Source: Candidatus Wolframiiraptor sinensis
Lineage (GTDB): Archaea; Thermoproteota; Nitrososphaeria_A; Caldarchaeales; Wolframiiraptoraceae
Direction of reading: 5' to 3'
DNA: 64,000 bases
NCBI GenBank assembly: GCA_023261815.1
Contig: JALNKA010000002.1
Span: 76,438-140,437 of the forward strand
The translations under genes and the position numbers were made by a program. The notes under the pieces were generated by a model, which saw only the letters and a list, made by a program, of their open reading frames with translations, did no database searches and was not told the origin of the DNA. Shown one piece after another: positions 3,376-50,195 of this stretch. Position 1 is the stretch's first letter. Every line of letters starts with the position of its first letter.

Positions 3376-4698
3376 CTATAGCACTATGATCTTCTTCCTT
3401 ATTTCTTCTGGATTGTTTATCACATCTGTGAAGTCCTCGACTATCTCGACCGTTCCGAGGAGCTCGCCTTCTTCATTTTTCACTCCGACTATCAGGACCC
3501 TTACTATCCTGTCGCCGATCCTCGTCCAGAACTCCCTGTAATCGGCCTTCCCCATCTTTATCTCGTCAACGACCTTCCTGACGGCGCCCTCGAGCCTCGG
3601 CGGATGACAGTACTCGAGTCTCCTCCCGATTATCGTCTTCGCCCTCACGAAGCGCTGGTGGAATACGCTCTCGGTGAAGAACTTGATCCTATCATCCTTA
3701 TTGGCATATGTGATCTCGATTGGAAGTGCTCTGAAGAGTGCTTTAACTTCCTCGGGGCTTAGGAACCCTGTCCCGAGATCCAGATCTCCTTCCGAGCGGA
3801 TTTCATAGGTGTCGGGCTGAAGGCTCTGCGAGAGGGCCATGATCCTGAACTCCTGCGGGAGCTTCTCGACCTGCTCCGGCGATATCCCGGCCTTCAGTTG
3901 ATGGGGCAGGATGGGCTCCGCCTCGCTTCTCCACCTCTCATCAACCTCAACTAGGTATCCGAGGTCCTCGGCTATCTCGGCTACCGCTGCCCACTCGCCC
4001 TCCGTTAGCAGGGCCCAGACGGCCGGAAAGAGTATCTTGTTCTCCCTGAAGACTAGGTCTGAGGTTTCATGGGCTATCTCGAGAGCTCTATTAGCCACCT
4101 CATTCACTCGAGATCTATTGAACTCGGTCTCCAACTTGCCGATCGCGTCTAGGAGGCCTCGAAGCTTCACCCTCACTTGGTCCTCTCTACCCCACATCAC
4201 CCTCGGAACAGCCACTATCCCCCTCCGCTCAAGATACGGGAACAACAGCATCTGGATCTTGCGATAGTGAAGCCTGATCTTCGCCAGCTCGAGAGCGGCT
4301 TGCTTCAAGCCCGCAAGAGCGCCTCTAGCCTCTTCATCGCTTCCAGCTTGCAGGATGGCGAAGGCATGTAGGCTCAGGGCATCCGCTTGCCTCACTATCC
4401 ACTCATTCTCCCTAATGAGAAGGTCGAGCGGGTGTCCCCTCGGAACTCCTTCGAGCTCCCTTGATCTGAGATGCTCCCTAAATAACTCGACATGAAGATC
4501 GCACAGCCTCAGTATCTCATCTATCTTAATGCCCTCTCTAACTAGCTGCTGCTCGATCAGTGGTATCTCGAAAGGAGATACCTGAGAAAGGACATCGCCG
4601 AACTCTCTTTTCAGCTTCTCAACACTCTCGCCAGCATGCAAAGCCTTCAAAATTCTCTTAATGGCCTCAATCTTATCAGGCGCGGATTTTGTTGACAC
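3376..4698 (-). CDS. DUF1858-hemerythrin-like(HHE)-DUF438 protein with C-terminal PAS domain (putative O2/NO/redox or metal sensor)
   Basis: N-terminal DUF1858-like helix bundle, His/Glu-rich hemerythrin-like segments, a central DUF438 region and a C-terminal PAS-like fold. This is the typical Pfam DUF438 protein architecture. Confidence 0.6.
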   Translation of the reverse strand: MSTKSAPDKIEAIKRILKALHAGESVEKLKREFGDVLSQVSPFEIPLIEQQLVREGIKIDEILRLCDLHVELFREHLRSRELEGVPRGHPLDLLIRENEWIVRQADALSLHAFAILQAGSDEEARGALAGLKQAALELAKIRLHYRKIQMLLFPYLERRGIVAVPRVMWGREDQVRVKLRGLLDAIGKLETEFNRSRVNEVANRALEIAHETSDLVFRENKILFPAVWALLTEGEWAAVAEIAEDLGYLVEVDERWRSEAEPILPHQLKAGISPEQVEKLPQEFRIMALSQSLQPDTYEIRSEGDLDLGTGFLSPEEVKALFRALPIEITYANKDDRIKFFTESVFHQRFVRAKTIIGRRLEYCHPPRLEGAVRKVVDEIKMGKADYREFWTRIGDRIVRVLIVGVKNEEGELLGTVEIVEDFTDVINNPEEIRKKIIVL

Positions 4699-6561: not shown

Positions 6562-7578
6562 ATGATGCTCCGGGAGTTCGATGCCGGTCCGGGCTCAATT
6601 ATCCTAGACCCGTTCCTAGGCTCGGGCACAACCCTACTGGCTTGCAAAGAGCTCGGCGTGGACGGCGTGGGCATCGACGTGGCCCCGCTCGCAGTCTTCG
6701 TGAGCAAAGTCAAGATAGCGGACTATGATCTGGAGGAGCTTAAGAGGGCCGCGAGCTGGCTCCTAAGCCAGCCATTCCAGAGGCCGGATCTCTCGGGCGT
6801 GAGCGGTTTCGTCAAGCAGTTCTTCCTAAAGCCATCGCTCGAGGACATAATCTTCTTCAGGGAGAAGATTCGCGAGATCGAGAACCCCCTCGTCAGGAAC
6901 TTCTTCACTCTGGCCCTCATGAACGCGGCGATGAAGGTTTCTCTCGCCTACAAGGATGGAGCGGTTTTAAAAGTGGTGAGGGATAAGCCTGTCCCACCCT
7001 TCAGGAAGTTCTTCAAGAGAATGGTCAAGAAGATGATAGGAGATTTGACGAGGCTGAGCTTCAAGCCATGCAGGCTGGAGGTGCATCTCGGCGACGCGAG
7101 GAAGATGGACTTCCTAGAAGATGAGATGTTCGACGCGATAATAACCTCGCCGCCATACCTCAACAAGATCGAGTACACGAAAGTTTACAGGATCGAGTAC
7201 GAGCTCTTTTTCGGCGACGTGAAGATAGATCCCATCAGGTCCTATCTCGGGCTGAATCCGAAGAACGTCGTGGACCAGTTTCCGGAGCTGAATCTTCCGG
7301 AGATCGCGAAAGCATACTTCCACGATATGAGGCTCTGCCTCGAGGAGATGTTCAGGGTCCTGAAGCCCGGCGGCAGGGTCGCGCTGGTCGTCGCCGGAGG
7401 AGCCTTCCCGGATAGGGTTGTCGAGTCGGATAAGCTCATCATGAAGCTCGCCGAGATCGTCGGGTTCGAGCCGGAGAGGCTGATCGCCGTGAACAAGAGG
7501 GTTGCGACAACACGGAGGGTGATAAAAATCGGAGAAGCGAGGGAGAGCATACTGATATTCTCGAAGCCGGCCCCCTAG
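6562..7578 (+). CDS. SAM-dependent methyltransferase, N6-adenine/N4-cytosine DNA MTase-like (DPFLGSGTT and SPPY motifs); possibly truncated or frameshifted at the N-terminus
   Basis: Motif I-like DPFLGSGTT near the N-terminus and motif IV-like SPPY about 170 aa later. An upstream ORF from ATG 6441 joins this frame if the T6 run at 6522-6527 is read as T5. No restriction-enzyme partner is evident. Confidence 0.6.
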   Translation: MMLREFDAGPGSIILDPFLGSGTTLLACKELGVDGVGIDVAPLAVFVSKVKIADYDLEELKRAASWLLSQPFQRPDLSGVSGFVKQFFLKPSLEDIIFFREKIREIENPLVRNFFTLALMNAAMKVSLAYKDGAVLKVVRDKPVPPFRKFFKRMVKKMIGDLTRLSFKPCRLEVHLGDARKMDFLEDEMFDAIITSPPYLNKIEYTKVYRIEYELFFGDVKIDPIRSYLGLNPKNVVDQFPELNLPEIAKAYFHDMRLCLEEMFRVLKPGGRVALVVAGGAFPDRVVESDKLIMKLAEIVGFEPERLIAVNKRVATTRRVIKIGEARESILIFSKPAP

Positions 7579-12955: not shown

Positions 12956-15903
<2,948 letters not shown>

Positions 15904-30287: not shown

Positions 30288-32462
30288 ATGAGTCCACGCG
30301 AGCTGCGCTTAAGAGTTGTCGAGGCGCGTCAAAGGGATGTAGGATATGGGATAGCGAGGATCGACCGGGAAGTTGGAGCAGCGGCGGGATTTCAGACAGG
30401 AGACATCGTCGAGATCGTCGGTAGAAAGGTTACAGCCGCCACCCTATGGCTCGGCTACATGGAAGATGAGAAGGACGCGATTAGAATAGACGGCTATATC
30501 AGGAATAACGCTGGGGTATCATTGAATGAGTGGGTGACGATACGCGAGGCAAAGGTTGCCGAGGCACAGCTCGTCGTCCTCGCCCCCGTAAATTCCTCGA
30601 TAAAGCCGGATGAGAACTTTACGAGGCTCGTTAAGAGCAGGCTGATAGAGTACCCGATCGTTCAGAAGAACGTAATTCCCGTGATGTTCTTCGGGAACCT
30701 ATTCACTTTCGCAGTTCTCCAGACCAAGCCCCAGGGAATCGTCAAGATAACGCCGAGAACCAGGCTCATAATACACTCGAAGGCGATGCAGGAGAAGGTT
30801 TTGAAGACGACTGTGACCTACGAGGACATAGGCGGGCTGCATGAGCAGATACAGAGGATAAGGGAGATGATAGAGCTCCCACTCCGCTACCCGGAGCTCT
30901 TCCAGAAGCTCGGGATAGAGCCGCCGAAGGGCGTCCTCCTCTATGGTCCGCCTGGGTGCGGAAAAACCCTCCTCGCAAAGGCGGTAGCGACGGAGGCCGA
31001 GGCGAACTTCATCCTCGTGAACGGCCCGGAGATTATGAACAAGTATTATGGTGAGAGCGAGGCGAGGTTGAGGGAGATATTCAGGAAGGCTGAGGAGAGC
31101 GCGCCATCCATAATATTCATAGACGAGATTGACGCGATTGCGCCCAAGAGGAGCGAGGTCACGGGAGAGGTTGAAAAGAGGGTTGTAGCCCAGCTCCTCG
31201 CCTTGATGGACGGCCTCGAGAGCAGGGGCCAGGTCATAGTCATAGGTGCCACGAATAGGCCCAACGCCCTCGACCCGGCTCTCAGGAGACCTGGAAGATT
31301 TGACCGCGAGATCGAGATAGGGATACCCGACAGGAATGCGAGGAGGGAGATTCTCCAGATCCATACTCGAGGCATGCCGCTCGCTGAGGACGTTGATCTC
31401 GATAAGCTCGCCGAGATGACCAAAGGCTACACCGGAGCTGATCTCGCGGCGCTGTGCAGGGAGGCCGCGATGAAGGCCATCAGGAGGATTCTGCCAAGCA
31501 TAGACTTCTCCGAGGAGCGGATACCGCCGGAGATACTGGATAAGCTCGTGGTGACGATGAAGGATTTCATGGACGCGTTCAAGGAGATAACGCCGACTGC
31601 GCTCAGGGAGATAGAGATCGAGATCCCGAATGTCCGCTGGGAGGATATCGGCGGGCTCGAGGATGTTAAGCGCCAGCTCGTAGAGGCGATCGAGTGGCCG
31701 CTCAAATACCCGGAGAAGTTCGAGAGGATGGGCATAAAGCCGCCGAAGGGCGTCCTCCTCTATGGTCCGCCGGGATGCGGCAAGACAATGCTCGCGAAGG
31801 CCGTCGCGACGGAGGCCGAGGCAAACTTCATCTCTGTCAAGGGCCCCGAGATCTTCAACAAGTGGGTTGGAGAATCGGAGAAAGCCGTCAGAGAGATATT
31901 TAGGAAGGCTAGGCAGGCCGCTCCATGCATAATATTCTTCGACGAGATAGAGTCCGTCGTGATGAGGAAGGATCTTGTGGAGGATTCATCGGGCGTCTCA
32001 AGCAGGGTGACGAGCCAGATACTCGCGGAGATGGATGGGATCGAAGAACTGACGGACGTGATAGTCATAGGCGCGACGAATAGGCCGGACCTTCTAGACC
32101 CAGCAATACTGAGACCCGGGAGATTCGATAAGCTGATCTACGTGCCTCCCCCAGAAGAGAAGTCGAGGTACCAGATCCTCAAGATATATACAAAGAGGAT
32201 GCCTCTCGCCCCGGATGTCTCGCTCAGGGATCTGGCGATGAGGACCGAGATGTATAGCGGCGCAGACTTGGCAGCCCTCTGCAGGGAAGCCGCGATGAAC
32301 GCGCTGAGAAGAAGCCTTGATGCAGAATACGTCACGAGGCAGGACTTCGAGCAGGCCCTAGAGGTGATTAAGCCCAGCATAACACCGCAGCTCCTGAAAG
32401 AGTATGAGAGGATGAGCGAGATGATCAGATACAGGAAGGAGCAGCTGACGATGATAGGCTGA
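30288..32462 (+). CDS. cdc48: CDC48/VCP-like AAA+ ATPase, paralog 2
   Basis: Same architecture and length (724 aa) as paralog 1. D1 is about 85% identical at protein level while the N-domain is divergent. Confidence 0.95.
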
Positions 32463-34873: not shown

Positions 34874-36235
34874 CTATTCTTCTCCTTCCCCGAGCGCCTT
34901 CCTCAGAAGCTTCTCGACCTTCTCCACGACCTCGATCGCGTCTTTGCCGAAGATCGTTATCATGGGCTCTTTGCCCCAATCGCCCTCATGATAAACGAGG
35001 TCCGGAACCCTTCCGCCAGCACTCTTAATCGCCTCCTCGATGCCCCATGGTATCGTGCCGCCCTCAGCCCTTTTAACCTCCTCAGGCTCCAGCCTCCTAT
35101 CATAGAATCCGATGATCCAGCCAAGCCTACTCGCCGCCTCGATAAACCTCGGATCATATCTTATGTTCATCGCGGCTCTTATCTCTGGGTCGTGCTCCAG
35201 CACCTTCAGAACCGCTCTCGCCACATGCCATGAAGCCGAGAACCATGGATGATCCGATGCTCTCGGGCCATCGGGGTGCTTCACGATTCTCCCGGGGACT
35301 CCGGCCACCTCGTCGAGGCTCCTCGCGCCCGGTATCGCCATGCATAGATTCATCTGGCACTCGGGAATGGCCTTTGCGATGATCTCGCTCCGCTCAATCC
35401 TCCCAACAGCCCTCCTCATAACCTCCAATACCCTGAACCTCTCAGCATCCCTCAGAAGCCTTCCAACAGGGTTTACGGGCCCGCTCCCTCCCCCAACCTG
35501 AAAGCCATATCTGATCGCATCGGTGACGAATATCTTCGCGCGCTCGACAGCCTCAAATATGCTCTTCTTCTTGGCAAGCTCCGCGGCGATCGCTGAGGCG
35601 AACGTGCAGCCTGTGCCGTGAGTCGTCCGCGTCTCGATCCTCTCGGCCTCATAGACCCTGAATTCTCCATCGAAATAAAGGATGTCAACAGCTCTCGGGT
35701 CTTCCACATGGCCTCCCTTAACCACGACACCTCTCGCGCCGAGCTCCGAGATCATCTTGGCAGCCCTCTTCTGGGACTCCAAATCCCTAATCCTGATGCC
35801 GGATAATGCCTCGGCCTCAAGCGCGTTCGGCGTGACGACGTATGCGCGTGGCAACAACTCCTCTATCAAGGCCTTGACCGCGCTCTCCTCCAAGAGCCGG
35901 GCGCCGCTTTTAGCTATCATCACGGGATCGACGACGATTGGCGCGCTTATCCGCCTCAGCTCCGATGCGACCGCCTCAATTATCTCAGATGTATGCAGCA
36001 TCCCGGTCTTCACGGCGTCGACGCCGATATCTCTGACCACGACCCTTATCTGCTCCCTGATGAGCTCCACGGGCAGATCATATATCATTGTGACCTCCAT
36101 GGTGTTCTGCGCGGTTATCGAGGTTATCGCGCTCATCCCGTGAACCCCGAGGGCTGCGAATGTCTTGAGATCGGCCTGGATCCCCGCGCCGCCGCCCGAG
36201 TCCGAGCCCGCGATAGTCAGTGCTCGCGGTATCAT
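34874..36235 (-). CDS. thiDN: Bifunctional HMP/HMP-P kinase ThiD fused to a ThiN thiamine-phosphate synthase domain (archaeal ThiDN)
   Basis: N-terminal ThiD ribokinase-like fold ([30 protein letters not shown]) plus a C-terminal ThiN domain of about 180 aa. Confidence 0.85.
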
Positions 36236-45800: not shown

Positions 45801-45857
45801 ATATGTTTAGCCTCAGCCCTCAATGCTTTTAATCCGGGAATATTCATCCCTCGTGGA

Positions 45858-47603
45858 ATGGATTCTCACAAGGGATCCTTAGATCTGGAGTCTGTTCTGG
45901 AGAGCGTTGCCTCGCCCATGAGGCTGAGGATCTTGAAGGCTCTAGCGGGCCGGAAGCTGAGCTACACGGAGCTCGTGAAGGCCGTTGGGCTCAATAGGGA
46001 TAGGGATGCCGGCAAATTCTCCTACCACCTCAAGAAGCTTCTCGCCGTTGGGCTCGTGGAGGTAGAAGCACCTACGGGGAAATACGTGCTATCGAGCAGG
46101 GGGGCCAGGATCCTGAGCGCCTTAGAATCCATTGAGGAGGAGCTGAGGGATAAGAGCCGGATGATGGTGAGAAGGAGCAATCAGATAGTCGAGCCATTTG
46201 ATAGAAGCAAGATAGCCGAGGCCCTGATAAGGGAGGGAAAGCTCCCGCCGAAGCTAGCGAGCGAGATAGCTGCAGTTGCCGAGAGGAAGCTCCTCGACCT
46301 CAGGATAGAATACCTTTCAGCCCCCCTAATCCGCGAGCTCGTCAACGCCATCCTCTTGGATATGGGCTTGGAAAAATATAGGCATAGGCTCACGAGGATA
46401 GGCATGCCCCTACATGACGCCGAGGCGCTTTTCAGAAGAGCCTTGGAGAGCGGGGACTGGATGCTTTTCACCCAAGAAACATCCGGCGCCATAATGAGGG
46501 AGTACCTGCTATTGGGATTTCTCCCGAGAAGCATCTCGGACATGCACCTCAGCGGAAAGATCGACATATATCCGATATCCGGCTGGCTCTCATGCTTATT
46601 CTCGAAGGCGATTAAACTCGATTCGGAGGAGCTGGTTAAATCCGCGATGAAGTTATGTTCCTCAATATTCCACATCAAGCACGAGATAAGGCTCCTGGGA
46701 TCTGAGGCCGGCGTCAAGCAGCTCATCTCATCGCTGCCGGACAAGCTACCCGGGAGGCGGATAATATCCACCGAGGCCTTTGACGATATTATGAGGTTTC
46801 TTCAGGAGATCTCGAGAGACACAAGATCCAGCATCGGGGTAATATTCGACTGCGGAAAGCATGATATCCGGGATATAGCTTCGGTGAGCAGGCAGTTGTG
46901 GAAGCTCGGAATCCCGCACGCATACGCGCTATCCGGTGAAACTTATTTCACAGGGTTCCGCCTAGATGAAGATTGCCGGGCGATCCACTCCATAATCACG
47001 TTGAATGCGCTTAGAGCCGCCATGGAGGGCGATGGCGACCTGGAGGGGATGATCTCGAATCTCAGAGGATGGCTGAAGAGCATTTTACCAATCATCAGGA
47101 GGGGATTAATGCTTGCGGGGAGATTTCATGGCGAGAGCAAGCCCTGCTCCATGATCGCATTGAGCGGCTTGATCGAGGCCGCGAAGCTTATGGCGAGGGG
47201 CAAGTCGGCGACAATAGAGGAGGCTGTGGAGCTGGAGCTCGCCGCGCTGAGGGAGCTGTCAAAGCTCATGCAGCAGGCGAATGACGTGATGCTCGTTGGC
47301 AGATGCCCCATCTCAGCCGCGAAGCGATTCTTCCACCTAGACTCGCAGAGACACGACAATGAGTTATTGAGGAACCTCACACGCGGAGCCAAAGCATACA
47401 GCTTGACCCCGATTCCTGAACTGAGCGAGTTCAGGAGCCTGGATTCATGGATTGAGCCCGCCAAGCAGATGGTACAGAATCTTAATGGCGGGTTCTGCCT
47501 GTGGATGAGGCTGAGCAGGCTTCCGAGAACCCTGAGTGAGGCGATATACATTGCCGAGGAATTAAGGAAATACAATAAGCATGGCGTAATAGTAGTCACA
47601 TGA
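45858..47603 (+). CDS. Winged-HTH (ArsR-like) + ATP-cone fusion protein with an uncharacterised ~370-aa C-terminal domain
   Basis: Residues 1-100 show an ArsR-type wHTH (MRLRILKAL..LSYTELVKAVGL..GKFSYHLKKLLAVGLVE). Residues 100-190 show an ATP-cone pattern (MMVRRSNQIVEPFDRSKIAEAL...SAPLIRELVNAILLDMGLEKYRHR). The rest has no recognised motif and no glycyl-radical or Zn site. Confidence 0.6.
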   Translation: MDSHKGSLDLESVLESVASPMRLRILKALAGRKLSYTELVKAVGLNRDRDAGKFSYHLKKLLAVGLVEVEAPTGKYVLSSRGARILSALESIEEELRDKSRMMVRRSNQIVEPFDRSKIAEALIREGKLPPKLASEIAAVAERKLLDLRIEYLSAPLIRELVNAILLDMGLEKYRHRLTRIGMPLHDAEALFRRALESGDWMLFTQETSGAIMREYLLLGFLPRSISDMHLSGKIDIYPISGWLSCLFSKAIKLDSEELVKSAMKLCSSIFHIKHEIRLLGSEAGVKQLISSLPDKLPGRRIISTEAFDDIMRFLQEISRDTRSSIGVIFDCGKHDIRDIASVSRQLWKLGIPHAYALSGETYFTGFRLDEDCRAIHSIITLNALRAAMEGDGDLEGMISNLRGWLKSILPIIRRGLMLAGRFHGESKPCSMIALSGLIEAAKLMARGKSATIEEAVELELAALRELSKLMQQANDVMLVGRCPISAAKRFFHLDSQRHDNELLRNLTRGAKAYSLTPIPELSEFRSLDSWIEPAKQMVQNLNGGFCLWMRLSRLPRTLSEAIYIAEELRKYNKHGVIVVT

Positions 47604-47607
47604 GTGG

Positions 47608-47973
47608 TTAATGCCTCCTTGACTTGAGTAGGAGTATTGCTTTTGCGAGGTCGCCATTGGCCTCTATCAGGGCGCTTCTCGCCTCCTCCTCGCTGACGCC
47701 GGCCTGAGCCGCCACGAGAATCACGTCCTCGCTCGACGGCTCATACCTTTCCTCAACTCTTCCCTCCTCCGATATCTCGCCGCCAATTATCTGGAAGACG
47801 CTTTCGTTCTCGAGCTTCATCTCCAGGACGTTGGCATCTTGGATCGTGATAATCTTATCTTCGAGCTCGATTATGATCTTGCTGGCCCTGCCGAGCTCCT
47901 TAACATCCAAGCCCAGGCTGCCAAGCATCTTCGCCTGCAGGCGCCTCAACTGCCTCGGGGAGACGCGCTTCAT
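47608..47973 (-). CDS. nac: Nascent polypeptide-associated complex protein (aNAC) with UBA domain
   Basis: NAC domain (MLGSLGLDVKEL...VFQIIG) and a C-terminal UBA-like segment (SEEEARSALIEANGDLAKAIL). Confidence 0.9.
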   Translation of the reverse strand: MKRVSPRQLRRLQAKMLGSLGLDVKELGRASKIIIELEDKIITIQDANVLEMKLENESVFQIIGGEISEEGRVEERYEPSSEDVILVAAQAGVSEEEARSALIEANGDLAKAILLLKSRRH

Positions 47974-48074
47974 CGCTCACGAGTAAGCTGAACCTCAAGG
48001 AATTTAAGATTACTTTTCGATAAAGCCCATGCTCGGGAAAGTTCTCCCAGCAGGCTGATTTATTGCCGAGCCTC

Positions 48075-48560
48075 CTAGTCTTTCCTTACTCTCCTTATCT
48101 TGATGACCGCGCCCGCCCTAAGCTCCCTCATGATCCGCGATGAGGTAATGGCTCTTCCGACGGCTATGAGCTTCCCATCGCCTGACTCCACCAGAACCTC
48201 CTCCCCCGGCCTTATCCCCTCAGAGCAGTACTCGATATCAGCCGCTAGAGGGTTCATGCCCCTGCTCACGCGCTCTACACCCGATTCCCGCAACACCACC
48301 CTCGGCGCCCTCTCCCCAAGAATCTCCTTAAGCCTCTCAGCACCCTTGAGGCTTAGAGCTATCATGTTATCCGGGTACCTGATGGTCGCGATAATCTCAT
48401 CATCTAACCGGACGTAGCGCGGTCTCCCAGTCCTCTTCGATAGCTCGACGACGCATCCTTCGGGGAAGAGCCTCTCACCCACTCCCCTCCCAAACTGATA
48501 GTCGGCCATATCGCGGACTATTCGGAGAAGCAGGTCACCTGATGACCCTGAAGCACTCAT
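48075..48560 (-). CDS. PUA-domain RNA-binding protein (Nip7-like)
   Basis: C-terminal PUA-like segment (GEEVLVESGDGKLIAVGRA...AVIKIRRV); 161 aa; overlaps the hflX 3' end. Confidence 0.55.
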   Translation of the reverse strand: MSASGSSGDLLLRIVRDMADYQFGRGVGERLFPEGCVVELSKRTGRPRYVRLDDEIIATIRYPDNMIALSLKGAERLKEILGERAPRVVLRESGVERVSRGMNPLAADIEYCSEGIRPGEEVLVESGDGKLIAVGRAITSSRIMRELRAGAVIKIRRVRKD

Positions 48561-49806
48561 TATTGAACTTCCTCCTTATCTTCTCGGCCAGCTGAATGGG
48601 CATCTCGGCCCTAAGCCTGATAAACTCATTCTCGTAGTTAAGGAGATCCACCTTGGAGCTCCTGAATATCTCGTTGAGGATCTTGGCCGTCTCATCGTTG
48701 TAGGGAAGCGTGGTCTCGACCTTGATGAAGCCTCTCAGGAGCTCGGAGACCTTTTTCTGAAGCTCATCTAGGCCCCAACCGTATTTCGCGGATATGACGA
48801 CGCGCGGCAGGTCTAGGTCCAGCTCGCTGATTCTCAGCTCGATCTCATCGCGGTCGAGGAGATCGGCCTTATTCAGCACTAGGAGCACTGGGACCTCGTG
48901 CGCCCCGATATTGTAAAGCGTCTGGAGCGATGTCGTGATCTTCTCCCTCAGCTTCTCCACGGGGTCCGATGCGTCGGCAACGAGCAGTATCAGGTCTGAG
49001 AGTGCTATCTCCCTGAGGGTCGCGTAGAATGCTTCCACGAGCAGGGTTGGGAGGTTCTTGATGAATCCGACGGTGTCGGAGAGGAAGACGGGCTTCCCCG
49101 CGATCCGGACGATTCTCGTGGTGGGCGTGAGCGTTGTGAAGAGCTTGGAATCCACGAGAACATTCTCCATCGTAAGCGCGTTAAAGAGCGTGGACTTCCC
49201 CGCATTCGTGTAGCCGGCGAGAGATATCAGCGGCAGGCCCCGCTTCCTCCTCTCCAACCTGATGAGATCCATGTGCTTCTTGAGGCTCTCGAGCTTCCTC
49301 GCTATCGAGACCATCCTCCTGTGAATCTCATCGTAGTAGATGTCCGCCTCATATGCTCCTAGTCCATGGAATCCAGGCTGCTCGCCCTTCTTCGCCAGCC
49401 TCACCTTCTCCTTCGCCCTAGAGAGCTCATATTTCAGCTCCGCCAGCTTTATCTGGAGCTTGGCCTCAAGGCTGCTAGCGTGAAGGCTGAATATCTCGAG
49501 GATCAGCTTTGTTCTCGTCAATATCGGGACCTTGAGCTCCTTGGCGAGATTGTATTCTTGGACGGGCTTCAGCTCATTCTCGAAGACCACCTTCTCTATT
49601 CCAAGCATCTCGACGGCTCTCTTCAGCTCCTCGACCTTCCCCGGGCCGATGTGGTACTCGGGGTGAGGGGGCCTAACCTGCTTCAGCTCATAAACCACCT
49701 CATAGCCCGCGGTTCTACAGAGCTCCTTAAGCTCGCTAAGATTATCATCCTCGCCTCTATCAACTCGATGAACTATTGCAACCCTCAAAGCTCCGCCTTC
49801 AAGCAT
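48535..49806 (-). CDS. hflX: GTPase HflX
   Basis: HflX N-domain and G domain (GYTNAGKSTLFNALT, DTVGF, NKAD). Confidence 0.9.
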   Translation of the reverse strand: MLEGGALRVAIVHRVDRGEDDNLSELKELCRTAGYEVVYELKQVRPPHPEYHIGPGKVEELKRAVEMLGIEKVVFENELKPVQEYNLAKELKVPILTRTKLILEIFSLHASSLEAKLQIKLAELKYELSRAKEKVRLAKKGEQPGFHGLGAYEADIYYDEIHRRMVSIARKLESLKKHMDLIRLERRKRGLPLISLAGYTNAGKSTLFNALTMENVLVDSKLFTTLTPTTRIVRIAGKPVFLSDTVGFIKNLPTLLVEAFYATLREIALSDLILLVADASDPVEKLREKITTSLQTLYNIGAHEVPVLLVLNKADLLDRDEIELRISELDLDLPRVVISAKYGWGLDELQKKVSELLRGFIKVETTLPYNDETAKILNEIFRSSKVDLLNYENEFIRLRAEMPIQLAEKIRRKFNNECFRVIR

Positions 49807-49841
49807 TATCCCCGCAAGCCGGCCTTAAAACCTTGATCCTC

Positions 49842-50195
49842 CTAAAGCTCCCGCTGCCTCTTCTTGATGAGGTCTCCGAGGCTCACTCCGCCGGAGGCTC
49901 CGGGCTTAGCTAGATACCTCCTGAGCTCCGAGGATGGCTCCTCTTCAGCCGGCACCAGAAGCCTTATCTTCAGGAACCTCTCGAGCTTTCTCGCGAGCTC
50001 TATTGATGGCCTGAGCTCGCCGTGCTCGATCTTCTTTATCACGGTCGCCTTCTCGCCTATCTGGCTGGCCAGCTCCTCCTGTGTCAAGCCCATTCGAGAC
50101 CTAGCTTCCTTAACAAGCTCACCATAATTCTCGACGAGCTCGAGGTCCTCGCCTGGCAAAGATCCACCGAGCCGTCTAGCTCTCCCCATATTCAA
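49842..50195 (-). CDS. HTH XRE-family DNA-binding protein (MBF1-like)
   Basis: cro/C1-type HTH (MGLTQEELASQIGEKATVIKKIEHGELRPSIELARKLERFL). Confidence 0.55.
   Translation of the reverse strand: MNMGRARRLGGSLPGEDLELVENYGELVKEARSRMGLTQEELASQIGEKATVIKKIEHGELRPSIELARKLERFLKIRLLVPAEEEPSSELRRYLAKPGASGGVSLGDLIKKRQREL

Follow-up and report, generated by a model that had tools for sequence, protein, structure and literature searches.

In the 64-kb stretch of Wolframiiraptor DNA analyzed here (the window), an ORF that starts with ATG and encodes 581 residues is found exactly where a first-pass annotation, made from the sequence alone, had placed it (Table 1). The gene lies divergently beside secE-spt5-L11-L1-L10, as that annotation had also proposed and Pfam matches bear out, with a spacer of 57 bp. 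The other large ORFs of the window encode two CDC48 proteins, AlaRS, EF-2, GluRS, RtcB and similar proteins. No gene for a ribonucleotide reductase (RNR) or for NrdG, the radical-SAM activase of class III RNR, was found in the window, and a six-frame search of it for the motifs NPCGE, MGCR and RxxGY gave no match. The only protein of the window with a CxxxCxxC (radical-SAM) motif was considered as an NrdG candidate and rejected, being TYW1-like. The Wolframiiraptor paper and its supplements make no mention of RNR.

Table 1. Coordinates in the window of the gene, its domains and motifs, and nearby features.
Feature	Coordinates	Strand	Basis
Whole gene, wHTH + ATP-cone + degenerate NrdD barrel	45858..47603	+	ORF listing; 581 aa + stop codon
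ArsR/SmtB-type winged helix-turn-helix (Pfam DUF7347 / HTH_20 / HTH_5), residues 13-95	45894..46142	+	
Putative recognition helix DAGKFSYHLKKL, residues 50-61	46005..46040	+	HMMER alignments to NolR, NmtR
ATP-cone, residues 102-188	46161..46421	+	PF03477, 29.8 bits
Putative nucleotide-binding hairpin VRRSNQIVEPFD inside ATP-cone	46167-46202	+	
Conserved end-and-linker motif YRHRLTRIGMPLHD of ATP-cone	46377-46418	+	
Trimmed, predicted catalytically dead class III RNR (NrdD)-type alpha/beta barrel, residues 189-581	46422..47600	+	
D236-I-Y-P239 at NrdD HxHD position, motif lost	46563..46574	+	Alignment with canonical NrdDs
FTGFRL, residues 364-369, Cys (finger) loop remnant	46947..46964	+	
AT-rich TATA-like element CTTTTAAT	45826..45833	.	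Sequence
Inverted repeat ATCCCTCGTG / CACAAGGGAT flanking start codon	45846..45876	.	10-nt arms, 90% complementary
Synteny anchor outside the protein: NAC/UBA (47608-47973), PUA (48075-48560), HflX (48535-49806), HTH_3 MBF1-like gene (49842-50195)	47608..50195	-	Pfam

The TATA-like element CTTTTAAT is located 28 nt before the ATG of the gene and 30 nt from the divergent ATG of secE and, since it lies between the two, may belong to a promoter that the two genes share or to overlapping ones. The orthologs L002-L009 have an equivalent AT-rich element at about -30, and this is the only feature in common: no sequence-conserved operator was found across the orthologs in the gene's own promoter. The inverted repeat ATCCCTCGTG / CACAAGGGAT is no more than a candidate for an operator or an mRNA hairpin, near chance level (by an estimate, chance alone would give about 0.2 repeats of this kind in the region), and its sequence is not conserved across orthologs. 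A second candidate, GTGTT-N4-AACAC, was rejected as a family operator because it occurs only in three Bathyarchaeia promoters, which are related to one another.

The protein has 77 homologs (22-97% identity), and 64 full-length matches cover at least 92% of the query at 29-97% identity. The homology is full-length and collinear, with the layout of winged helix (wHTH), cone and NrdD-derived barrel present in 37/37 aligned members. The domain identities are established by sequence and structure together. The N-terminal domain is of the ArsR type, as had been proposed, with scores above the Pfam gathering cut-offs for HTH_20 (residues 18-70, 39.6 bits against 27), HTH_5/ArsR (31.2 bits against 22) and DUF7347 (residues 13-88, 38.3 bits against 27.6); the NCBIfam ArsR/SmtB model NF033788 gives 30.8 bits, below its cut-off of 55. 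It shares with the ArsR/SmtB proteins (CzrA, SmtB, CadC, NolR) the wHTH fold and a recognition helix of the S-x-H-L type: DAGKFSYHLKKL aligns with that of NolR and NmtR, and none of 37 sequences departs from A51, G52, F54, Y56, H57 and L58. All of the best structural matches of the domain are DNA-binding repressors. Unlike in ArsR/SmtB, four residues (RDRD) are inserted before the recognition helix, and in place of a metal site within the wHTH, which has zero Cys and no metal-sensing site, the sensor is a separate cone-plus-barrel module.

The ATP-cone expected at residues 100-190 is likewise present. PF03477 matches residues 102-174 above its gathering cut-off of 25.8 bits, and in the alignment of 37 family sequences V104, R106, E112, F114, K118 and I119 are invariant, as is the motif V-R-R-x5-E-x-F-x3-K-I. 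The domain is a candidate ATP/dATP-binding cone, and its hairpin (K/R-R...E.F...KI) is conserved. In NrdD, the class III RNR, such cones are repositioned by ATP and dATP (PMC12662201, PMC11226230). The first-pass annotation had taken the cone for an independently fused module, which did not hold up. Residues 90-238, comprising cone and linker, are 33% identical to canonical archaeal NrdD (BLAST E=7e-20), and the two have in common the motifs VRRS(D/N), PLIRELVN, YR..LTR.G.P.(Y/H)D and HLSG. The alignments thus indicate joint descent of cone, linker and barrel from an ATP-cone-bearing archaeal NrdD, the wHTH apparently being the sole addition.

For the remaining residues, about 190-581, single-sequence searches found no match in Pfam, NCBIfam or, by phmmer, the PDB, and a phmmer search with the C-terminal domain among 1.84 billion representative proteins returned only 18 relatives, none with a different architecture. 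The earlier statement that no motif can be assigned here is therefore correct for the single sequence. It fails as a description of a domain of unknown type, as profiles, intermediates and structure, and these only, reveal a reduced NrdD barrel. The model is confident (pLDDT ~85-95) and displays a ten-stranded alpha/beta barrel of the RNR/glycyl-radical-enzyme type. The cone-linker-barrel layout is the same as in the NrdDs of P. copri (8p23) and S. thermophilus (9d3x) and in archaeal glutaredoxin-linked NrdD (L068/L084). The differences from class III NrdD are the extra wHTH at the N-terminus, a barrel about 30% shorter (~390 aa versus ~550 aa in PcNrdD), and the loss of the NxN flap, HxHD, the beta1 Cys, the Cys-loop Cys, the Zn ribbon and the glycyl-radical loop.

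The losses can be followed residue by residue. The NxN flap segment is deleted in all members of the wHTH family, and alignment with canonical NrdDs finds no beta1 Cys in the query. The HxHD motif, which in NrdD binds the substrate triphosphate (PMC11226230), aligns as HIHD in canonical enzymes, HLNN in long forms of the family (described below) and DIYP in short forms such as the query. The position of the thiyl-radical Cys (Cys416 in PcNrdD, Cys400 in StNrdD) is occupied by Phe367, in a column that is F, Y or L in 37/37 short forms; one alignment places C373 there instead, a residue present in only 5/37 family members. The chain stops at the last barrel strand (...HGVIVVT), without the RxxGY that canonical NrdD neighbors in related loci carry as SR[IV][TV]GY. 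No four-Cys Zn ribbon was found, there being zero CxxC in the entire protein. None of its seven Cys is invariant, and no Cys is conserved in the barrel domain. These findings agree with the first-pass annotation, which had noted the lack of RxxGY and CxxC and only scattered Cys, and they support its reading of the protein as something other than a working RNR. By alignment and structural model, the barrel is a trimmed and, to judge from these losses, catalytically dead NrdD. An intact RNR core had been named as the finding that would turn the proposed regulator into an enzyme; the core is not intact, so that this ground for refutation does not arise.

The family is widespread in Thermoproteota, with intact full-length ORFs in 504 metagenome contigs and in the genomes of at least 398 archaeal species. 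Some relatives are annotated by JGI and NCBI as anaerobic ribonucleoside-triphosphate reductase, and the literature searched yielded no description of an HTH-fused NrdD or an HTH-fused cone. The long forms of Bathyarchaeia (P0073, L068, L084; 729-785 aa) share the architecture and are 43-46% identical to the query over residues 13-244. They keep the Zn ribbon and a full-size barrel; the query, lacking both, is the truncated derivative. Long forms too are catalytically incomplete: the Cys-loop Cys is kept in 10/137 censused sequences, but Cys-loop Cys and radical Gly occur together in 0/137 non-redundant family members. Within the family the NRDD profile score declines gradually, with 274 bits as the highest value and no match at the other extreme, and graded intermediates survive, from a full barrel with Cys and Zn through Zn only to neither. 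Three wHTH-fused proteins with an 'RxEGY' tail (L142, L150, L151) were rejected as bifunctional intermediates, having no flap, beta1 Cys or Cys-loop Cys and the Gly of the tail out of register. Against three orthologs, whole-gene dN/dS is 0.10-0.16, with values of 0.12-0.26 for the wHTH, 0.03-0.07 (the lowest) for the cone and 0.11-0.15 for the barrel. Thus all three domains, each of which also has invariant residues, are under purifying selection.

The association with RNR is seen in the long forms. In 18 loci, those with named genomes being Bathyarchaeia, a long-form paralog lies immediately 5' of a canonical nrdD on the same strand, and a glutaredoxin gene (grx) usually precedes nrdD. The canonical NrdDs at these loci have an intact flap, HxHD, CCR and RVTGYY and reach 494-651 bits with the NRDD model of Pfam. 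In the reciprocal test, the paralog was upstream of 3/4 canonical NrdDs on long contigs. With canonical archaeal NrdD as the query, the best 120 matches were all Bathyarchaeota-like and at least 80% identical. In 1.875 Mb, 15 copies of a 16-bp box, [AG]TACA[AG]AATTTTA[AT]AC, are found when up to 1 mismatch is allowed, and 15/15 copies are 6-240 nt past the stop codon of a wHTH-cone-NrdD-like paralog and upstream of grx/nrdD. The long-form paralogs are thus tied in the genome to nrdD, and the box is specific to the spacer between them. The box-carrying genomes are, however, relatives of one another, and the box could be no more than an nrdD promoter element bound by something else. The 64-kb window has no match to it at ≤3 mismatches; three residues of the query's putative recognition helix are different in the box-associated long forms, which have DAGRFAYHLKFL. 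Within ±10 kb of about 45 short-form loci no RNR was found, so the link of the short forms to RNR comes through their long-form paralogs (~44% identity, N-terminal 230 residues). The 18 loci and the spacer-confined box lend independent support to the first-pass proposal of a nucleotide-sensing regulator resembling NrdR.

A second connection is provided by synteny. The NAC/PUA/HflX/HTH_3 block downstream of the gene is kept in about 24 short-form loci, and in Bathyarchaeia the same genes, with varying order and strand, come after the long-form paralog and grx-nrdD-pyrBI; in L084 and L072 the order is long-form paralog-grx-NrdD-pyrB-pyrI-NAC-PUA-HTH_3-HflX. The common block ties the window locus to the long-form nrdD loci. 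Long forms adjoin grx-nrdD or pyrB-pyrI, neighbors that the query lacks. True ATCase adjacency was found in 38 loci, only with long forms and of the Bathyarchaeia type; the orientation being convergent, this may be plain synteny. A supposed PyrB, divergent and upstream in Caldarchaeum/Terraquivivens loci, proved to be ornithine carbamoyltransferase and was rejected.

Among alternatives, a nucleotide-sensing transcription factor with targets other than RNR deserves the most weight, though it is unlikely. Such a protein would act on the divergent secE-spt5-L11-L1-L10 operon, or on other growth-related genes, so that their expression tracks ATP charge. The single central TATA-like element in the 57-bp spacer and the absence of RNR near any short form fit this possibility, as does the divergent spt5/L11/L1 arrangement, which the window has in common with L002-L010, where protein identity falls to as little as 39%. 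The adjacency to secE-spt5 is real at the window locus but is not a trait of the family, being limited to the Wolframiiraptor-like lineage; in other Aigarchaeota, argF, IF-2B or other genes are upstream. The spacer also has no conserved operator, and the ancestral context of the family is nrdD.

Less probable still is a pseudoenzyme partner that tunes the activity or stability of NrdD or another protein in response to ATP/dATP, with the wHTH used to contact proteins or to tether the protein to DNA non-specifically. Regulation of live enzymes by their dead paralogs is a known theme. Long forms do occur in tandem with an active paralog, and heterodimers are conceivable, since NrdD is an obligate dimer (PMC11226230). 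However, the ArsR-type recognition helix is kept with its six invariant residues, and the best structural matches of the wHTH are without exception repressors that bind DNA. Furthermore, the short form, which has lost much of the barrel surface, persists under purifying selection at about 45 loci without nrdD nearby.

A working but unusual class III RNR, perhaps with a new way of radical generation, is very improbable. The fold is that of NrdD, the database names say as much, and the window has no other RNR, but every catalytic element listed above is missing, no Cys is conserved anywhere in a barrel of reduced length, the window encodes no NrdG, and related loci carry a gene for a complete NrdD alongside. 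The declining NRDD scores might suggest a decaying fusion gene kept by chance, a functionless relic, but this is effectively refuted by the dN/dS values, the many intact full-length ORFs, the invariant residues in all three domains and the confident barrel model.

On balance, the gene probably encodes a pseudoenzyme-based, nucleotide-sensing transcription factor analogous to NrdR, for which we infer nucleotide binding, dimerization, DNA binding and a regulon. In the scenario proposed, an ATP-cone-bearing archaeal NrdD was duplicated, and one copy would have acquired a winged helix of the ArsR type at its N-terminus and given up radical chemistry. In the Aigarchaeota (Caldarchaeales) branch, which includes the window, the Zn-ribbon/glycyl-radical domain and some 30% of the barrel would have been lost too, with the DNA-reading helix, the ATP/dATP-binding cone and linker and the compact barrel kept by purifying selection. 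The barrel would dimerize as in NrdD. Occupancy of the cones by ATP or dATP would reposition or re-associate them, as in active NrdDs, and so alter how far apart the two N-terminal wHTH domains lie and how they are oriented. It is proposed that the signal of the cones now reaches the wHTH pair because its former receivers, the flap and the glycyl-radical domain, are gone. The rearrangement would switch DNA binding on or off, making transcription track the (d)ATP pool. The ancestral target would have been the adjacent glutaredoxin-nrdD operon; the target here would most likely be genes for RNR or dNTP metabolism at other sites in the genome, and perhaps also the gene's own promoter, common with secE.

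RNR transcription in bacteria is controlled by NrdR, a Zn-ribbon protein with an ATP-cone. In NrdR, as in the query, a DNA-binding domain is followed by the cone, and the logic of NrdR, in which ATP/dATP sensing leads to control of RNR genes, is proposed for the query by analogy. NrdR binds paired boxes upstream of RNR operons, and relatives of the query have a conserved box upstream of an nrd operon, although the box of the long-form loci is unlike NrdR boxes. In other respects the two differ. The N-terminus of the query is an ArsR-type wHTH instead of a Zn ribbon with two CxxC, and NrdR has about 150-170 aa, whereas the query has 581 and a whole dead NrdD barrel. Unlike that of NrdR, the cone of the query appears to descend from NrdD itself. 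The earlier statement that archaea lack NrdR was too strong, as it is described as rare in archaea (PMC9110341); no archaeal equivalent of the regulator came up in the literature searched. The family as a whole may be the archaeal counterpart of NrdR in a different construction, derived from a dead class III RNR, that reads dNTP pools and sets the transcription of RNR and related genes. It would reuse the cone and perhaps the dimer-interface specificity site (dATP, dTTP, dGTP), and the query would be its most reduced form.

Since the name anaerobic ribonucleoside-triphosphate reductase is wrongly attached to many members, metabolic reconstructions of uncultured archaea may infer a class III RNR that is absent. 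The family now offers a concrete candidate for an archaeal RNR regulator, with a defined 16-bp candidate operator beside nrdD in the box-carrying genomes. If the proposal is true, it would clearly exemplify how an enzyme can become a regulator, a change in which the allosteric sensor was kept and the chemistry discarded.

The first-pass annotation had described the window gene as coding for an ArsR-type winged helix-turn-helix (wHTH) and an ATP-cone, followed by about 370 residues without an assignable motif. The reading frame is present as described, and both N-terminal domains score above the gathering score of the respective Pfam model, the threshold used for the window protein (see table). 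The wHTH is ArsR-like in fold, yet it falls under the NCBIfam ArsR/SmtB cut-off and, unlike ArsR/SmtB metalloregulators, has no metal site. For the C-terminal part, the description holds for single-sequence searches: residues ~190-581 match nothing in Pfam, NCBIfam or PDB, and phmmer against 1.84 billion representative proteins returns only 18 relatives, all of identical architecture, with matches beginning near residue 190. However, homologs and a profile reveal that this domain is the barrel of a class III ribonucleotide reductase (RNR), NrdD. Over 77 homologs, the Pfam NRDD score falls stepwise from 274 bits (homolog P0073) through 219, 99, 74, 56, 38, 27 and 24 to none for the window protein. 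The same model individually matches 24 of the 37 closest relatives (short forms, the window type), and a profile of these 37 sequences finds the solved NrdDs 9d3x (E=2.9e-9) and T. maritima 4coi (E=1.8e-5).

Features of the window gene and its promoter region, and positions of the 16-bp box at related loci (L numbers)
Feature	Location	Strand	Remarks
Window gene	45858-47603	+	581 aa, ATG start
HTH_20	residues 18-70		39.6 bits (cut-off 27)
HTH_5/ArsR	window protein		31.2 bits (cut-off 22)
DUF7347	residues 13-88		38.3 bits (cut-off 27.6)
ATP-cone PF03477	residues 102-174		29.8 bits (cut-off 25.8)
secE/window-gene spacer	45801-45857		57 bp, single AT-rich element
AT-rich TATA-like element	45826-45833		CTTTTAAT, ~28-30 nt from both start codons
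16-bp box	L056:2704-2719
16-bp box	L064:2580-2595
16-bp box	L067:8289-8304
16-bp box	L068:8289-8304
16-bp box	L072:4213-4228
16-bp box	L084:6501-6516
16-bp box	L085:6596-6611
16-bp box	L086:6604-6619
16-bp box	L145:3882
16-bp box	L148:11912
16-bp box	L155:9495
16-bp box	L156:3567
16-bp box	L159:4609
16-bp box	L161:12422
16-bp box	L166:12306

The fate of the catalytic residues was followed using the functional positions published for P. copri and S. thermophilus NrdD (PMC11226230; PMC12662201), with canonical (catalytically complete) NrdDs encoded adjacent to relatives of the window gene as in-family references. The NxN flap, ENAN in canonical NrdD, is deleted in every wHTH-fused protein. The substrate-triphosphate motif H[IV]HD becomes HLNN, HIED or HITN in the long forms of the family and DIYP (residues 236-239) in the window protein. 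The beta1 Cys (RPFC) is Glu, Ser or Asn in long forms and has no counterpart in the window protein. The thiyl-radical Cys, canonically (Q/M)CCR, lies in TGCR in some long forms and is lost in TGFRL (Phe367) of the window protein. Canonical NrdDs have both a Zn ribbon and a glycyl loop, SR[IV][TV]GY; long forms have the Zn ribbon with SRVSAKY or DRFAST, and the window protein, which terminates at the last barrel strand, has neither. Although homologous to NrdD, the window protein shows only one of six features tested as defining NrdD. As the first reading had it, there is no RxxGY and no CxxC, and the Cys are scattered. They number seven, none of them invariant in the 37 family members; C373, aligned with the catalytic Cys in one alignment, is present in just five. 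The Cys-loop Cys and the Gly at the radical position never occur together in 137 non-redundant full-length family members, of which 80 lack everything, 40 keep the Zn ribbon only, 10 Cys and Zn, and 7 Zn and Gly. The core is not an intact RNR but an RNR-derived, dead one, so the objection foreseen in the first-pass annotation, that an intact RNR core would make this an enzyme and not a regulator, does not apply. The three-domain architecture and pseudoenzyme status of the window protein are close to certain.

The earlier picture of a wHTH and ATP-cone fused to an unrelated domain needs correction. Residues 90-238 of the window protein (cone, linker and first barrel helices) are 33% identical to a canonical archaeal NrdD (E=7e-20), and the most conserved motifs of the family, VRRS(D/N)..., PLIRELVN and YR..LTR.G.P.(Y/H)D, are common to that NrdD subtype. 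Because of these matches, cone, linker and barrel are, judging by sequence, co-inherited from an ATP-cone NrdD, the wHTH being the sole addition. A long form is 29% identical to the NrdD encoded beside it over 726 residues (E=3e-80). In the family alignment, invariant residues are found in the recognition helix (A51, G52, F54, Y56, H57, L58), the cone hairpin (V104, R106, E112, F114, K118, I119), the cone end and linker (Y174, R175, L178, R180, G182, P184, D187) and the barrel (E215, R224, G233, W243, E276, N383, R490, G545). Measured against ortholog L082 (97% identity) and orthologs L002 and L003 (~78%), the window gene has a dN/dS of 0.03-0.07 in the cone, 0.105-0.147 in the barrel and 0.12-0.26 in the wHTH. 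The gene is maintained, not decaying.

Relatives occur in at least 398 genomes when each GTDB species is represented by one genome, including Ca. Wolframiiraptor (77-78% identical to the window protein), Caldarchaeum, Terraquivivens, Geocrenenecus, many Bathyarchaeia and a few others; metagenomes contribute 504 more. Short forms (535-608 aa) are of Aigarchaeota type and long forms (729-785 aa) of Bathyarchaeia type. A downstream block of NAC, PUA, HflX and HTH_3 genes, all on the minus strand, is common to all short-form loci. Upstream, secE, spt5, L11, L1 and L10 are divergent from the window gene across the 57-bp spacer, confirming the placement first reported and, with it, the last detail of the original observation. 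This spt5/L11/L1 arrangement is limited to the window and related loci L002-L010, the remaining loci having argF, IF-2B or a different gene upstream. At Caldarchaeum/Terraquivivens-type loci (L015, L019, L020, L025-L027), argF (ornithine carbamoyltransferase, minus strand) divergently adjoins the short form with a spacer of ~80-150 bp. A BLAST cluster had suggested that this gene is pyrB, giving a pyrB association in two configurations, but motifs and NCBIfam identify the carbamoyltransferase. Genuine pyrB-pyrI adjacency is seen at 38 loci and is given little weight because it is confined to long-form Bathyarchaeia-type loci and convergent.

In 18 loci, a canonical NrdD with every catalytic motif (Pfam NRDD 494-651 bits) comes immediately after a long form and is encoded in the same direction; eight of these loci (named genomes, or reached via Bathyarchaeota-like NrdDs) are assignable to Bathyarchaeia and the other ten are metagenome loci without taxonomy. 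A glutaredoxin gene (grx, ~100 aa) usually precedes the NrdD, and NrdG-like radical-SAM genes lie near the pair in L085 and L086. Reciprocally, three of four canonical NrdDs picked on long contigs have a long form upstream. The single sampled NrdD locus without one, L083 (Bathyarchaeota chromosome CP070791), has a run of N (6665-6764) just upstream of nrdD, and its grx appears truncated by the gap. In L084 and L072 the gene order is long form-grx-NrdD-...-pyrB-pyrI-NAC-PUA-HTH_3-HflX. Since the flanking genes are shared, the window locus looks like an ancestral locus of this kind after loss of grx-nrdD-pyrBI, although HflX and HTH_3 are ordered and oriented differently. The Cys-loop region of glutaredoxin-linked canonical NrdDs reads SCYQCCAYCF in L068:8682-10892, L056:3111-5321, L072:4609-6804 and L166:12719-15040, which may be an alignment artefact or mark a separate NrdD subclass using the adjacent redoxin; L064- and L155-type NrdDs have MCCR or QCCR. 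The canonical NrdD frame 3' of the long form at L150:3362-7420 is 1353 aa, nearly twice normal, and may contain an intein or fusion. In three Bathyarchaeia loci, the long-form gene is closely preceded by a gene for tRNA-Pro(CGG) (L056:5-82, L064:1-78 and L067:5655-5732, minus strand).

The spacers between these family members and grx/nrdD are poorly conserved (48% mean column identity), and they share a near-palindromic 16-bp box followed by an AT-rich TATA-like element. With at most one mismatch, [AG]TACA[AG]AATTTTA[AT]AC has 15 matches when both strands of the 1.875 Mb of retrieved sequence are scanned, each of them 6-240 nt past the stop codon of a family member and upstream of grx/nrdD. 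The box is a candidate operator in the relatives. L056 and L068 have a second, upstream CATAC-containing element ~31 nt from it. The 64-kb window has no match at up to three mismatches, which fits with the finding of no RNR gene there; none was found within 10 kb of ~45 short-form loci either. Three positions of the recognition helix distinguish the window protein from box-associated long forms, and no conserved operator was found in the window gene's own promoter. RNR genes as the target of the window protein in this organism are a tentative proposal. The single AT-rich element, from its distance to both start codons, suggests overlapping or shared promoters of secE and the window gene and leaderless transcripts.

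In published structures, NrdD cones undergo large shifts in position or re-associate under the control of ATP and dATP, a signal for which flap and glycyl-radical domain normally serve as readout (PMC12662201; PMC11226230). Both receivers are gone in the wHTH-fused family, and the wHTH is joined to the cone by a short linker (residues 96-113) of low confidence in the structure model. In the most economical reading, the barrel would be retained as a scaffold for dimerisation, the cone would still sense the ATP/dATP ratio, and its movement would now determine how the two wHTHs are arranged and hence DNA binding; nucleotide binding, dimerisation and DNA binding are all predicted. We lean towards a nucleotide-sensing transcription factor. 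Other targets for such a factor are a less likely but live alternative, one candidate being the secE-spt5-ribosomal operon, which shares the central TATA-like element. Less probable still is a pseudoenzyme partner of NrdD that does not bind DNA; such a role would poorly explain why the recognition helix is invariant and why short forms persist without an nrdD close by. Selection and distribution data rule out a functionless relic, and the missing catalytic set rules out, for practical purposes, a working RNR.

Elsewhere in the window, two full-length CDC48/VCP-type double-AAA ATPase paralogs of 724 aa each (12956-15130 and 30288-32462, both plus strand) lie within 17 kb, and a ThiD-like phosphomethylpyrimidine kinase is fused with an archaeal ThiN-type thiamine-phosphate synthase (34874-36235, minus strand). 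A 440-aa protein with DUF438, hemerythrin HHE and PAS_10 domains (3376-4698, minus strand) may sense O2, NO or iron; the closest named relative of the organism, Ca. Wolframiiraptor, is an anaerobe.

NrdR likewise joins a DNA-binding domain to an ATP-cone and the window protein is predicted to work alike, yet the absence of a Zn ribbon places it outside the NrdR family. Archaeal NrdR is described as rare (PMC9110341), and the window protein would be a functional analogue built from the enzyme itself. In the searched literature on RNR phylogeny, ATP-cones and NrdR, an HTH-fused or regulator-type NrdD is nowhere described, an absence that is not proof of novelty. Cone-based nucleotide-sensing regulators and enzyme-derived transcription factors are both known kinds, and the window protein plausibly belongs to both. 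Database labels for the homologs vary (ArsR regulator, ATP-cone protein, hypothetical protein, anaerobic RNR), and P0062, P0064, P0057 and other catalytically dead homologs are called 'anaerobic ribonucleoside-triphosphate reductase', which could mislead metabolic reconstructions. The dNTP-sensing regulator first proposed is supported in part: its 'unknown' domain has turned out to be a dead, trimmed NrdD; the regulator hypothesis itself is credible and directly testable because the family is linked to genuine nrdD operons.
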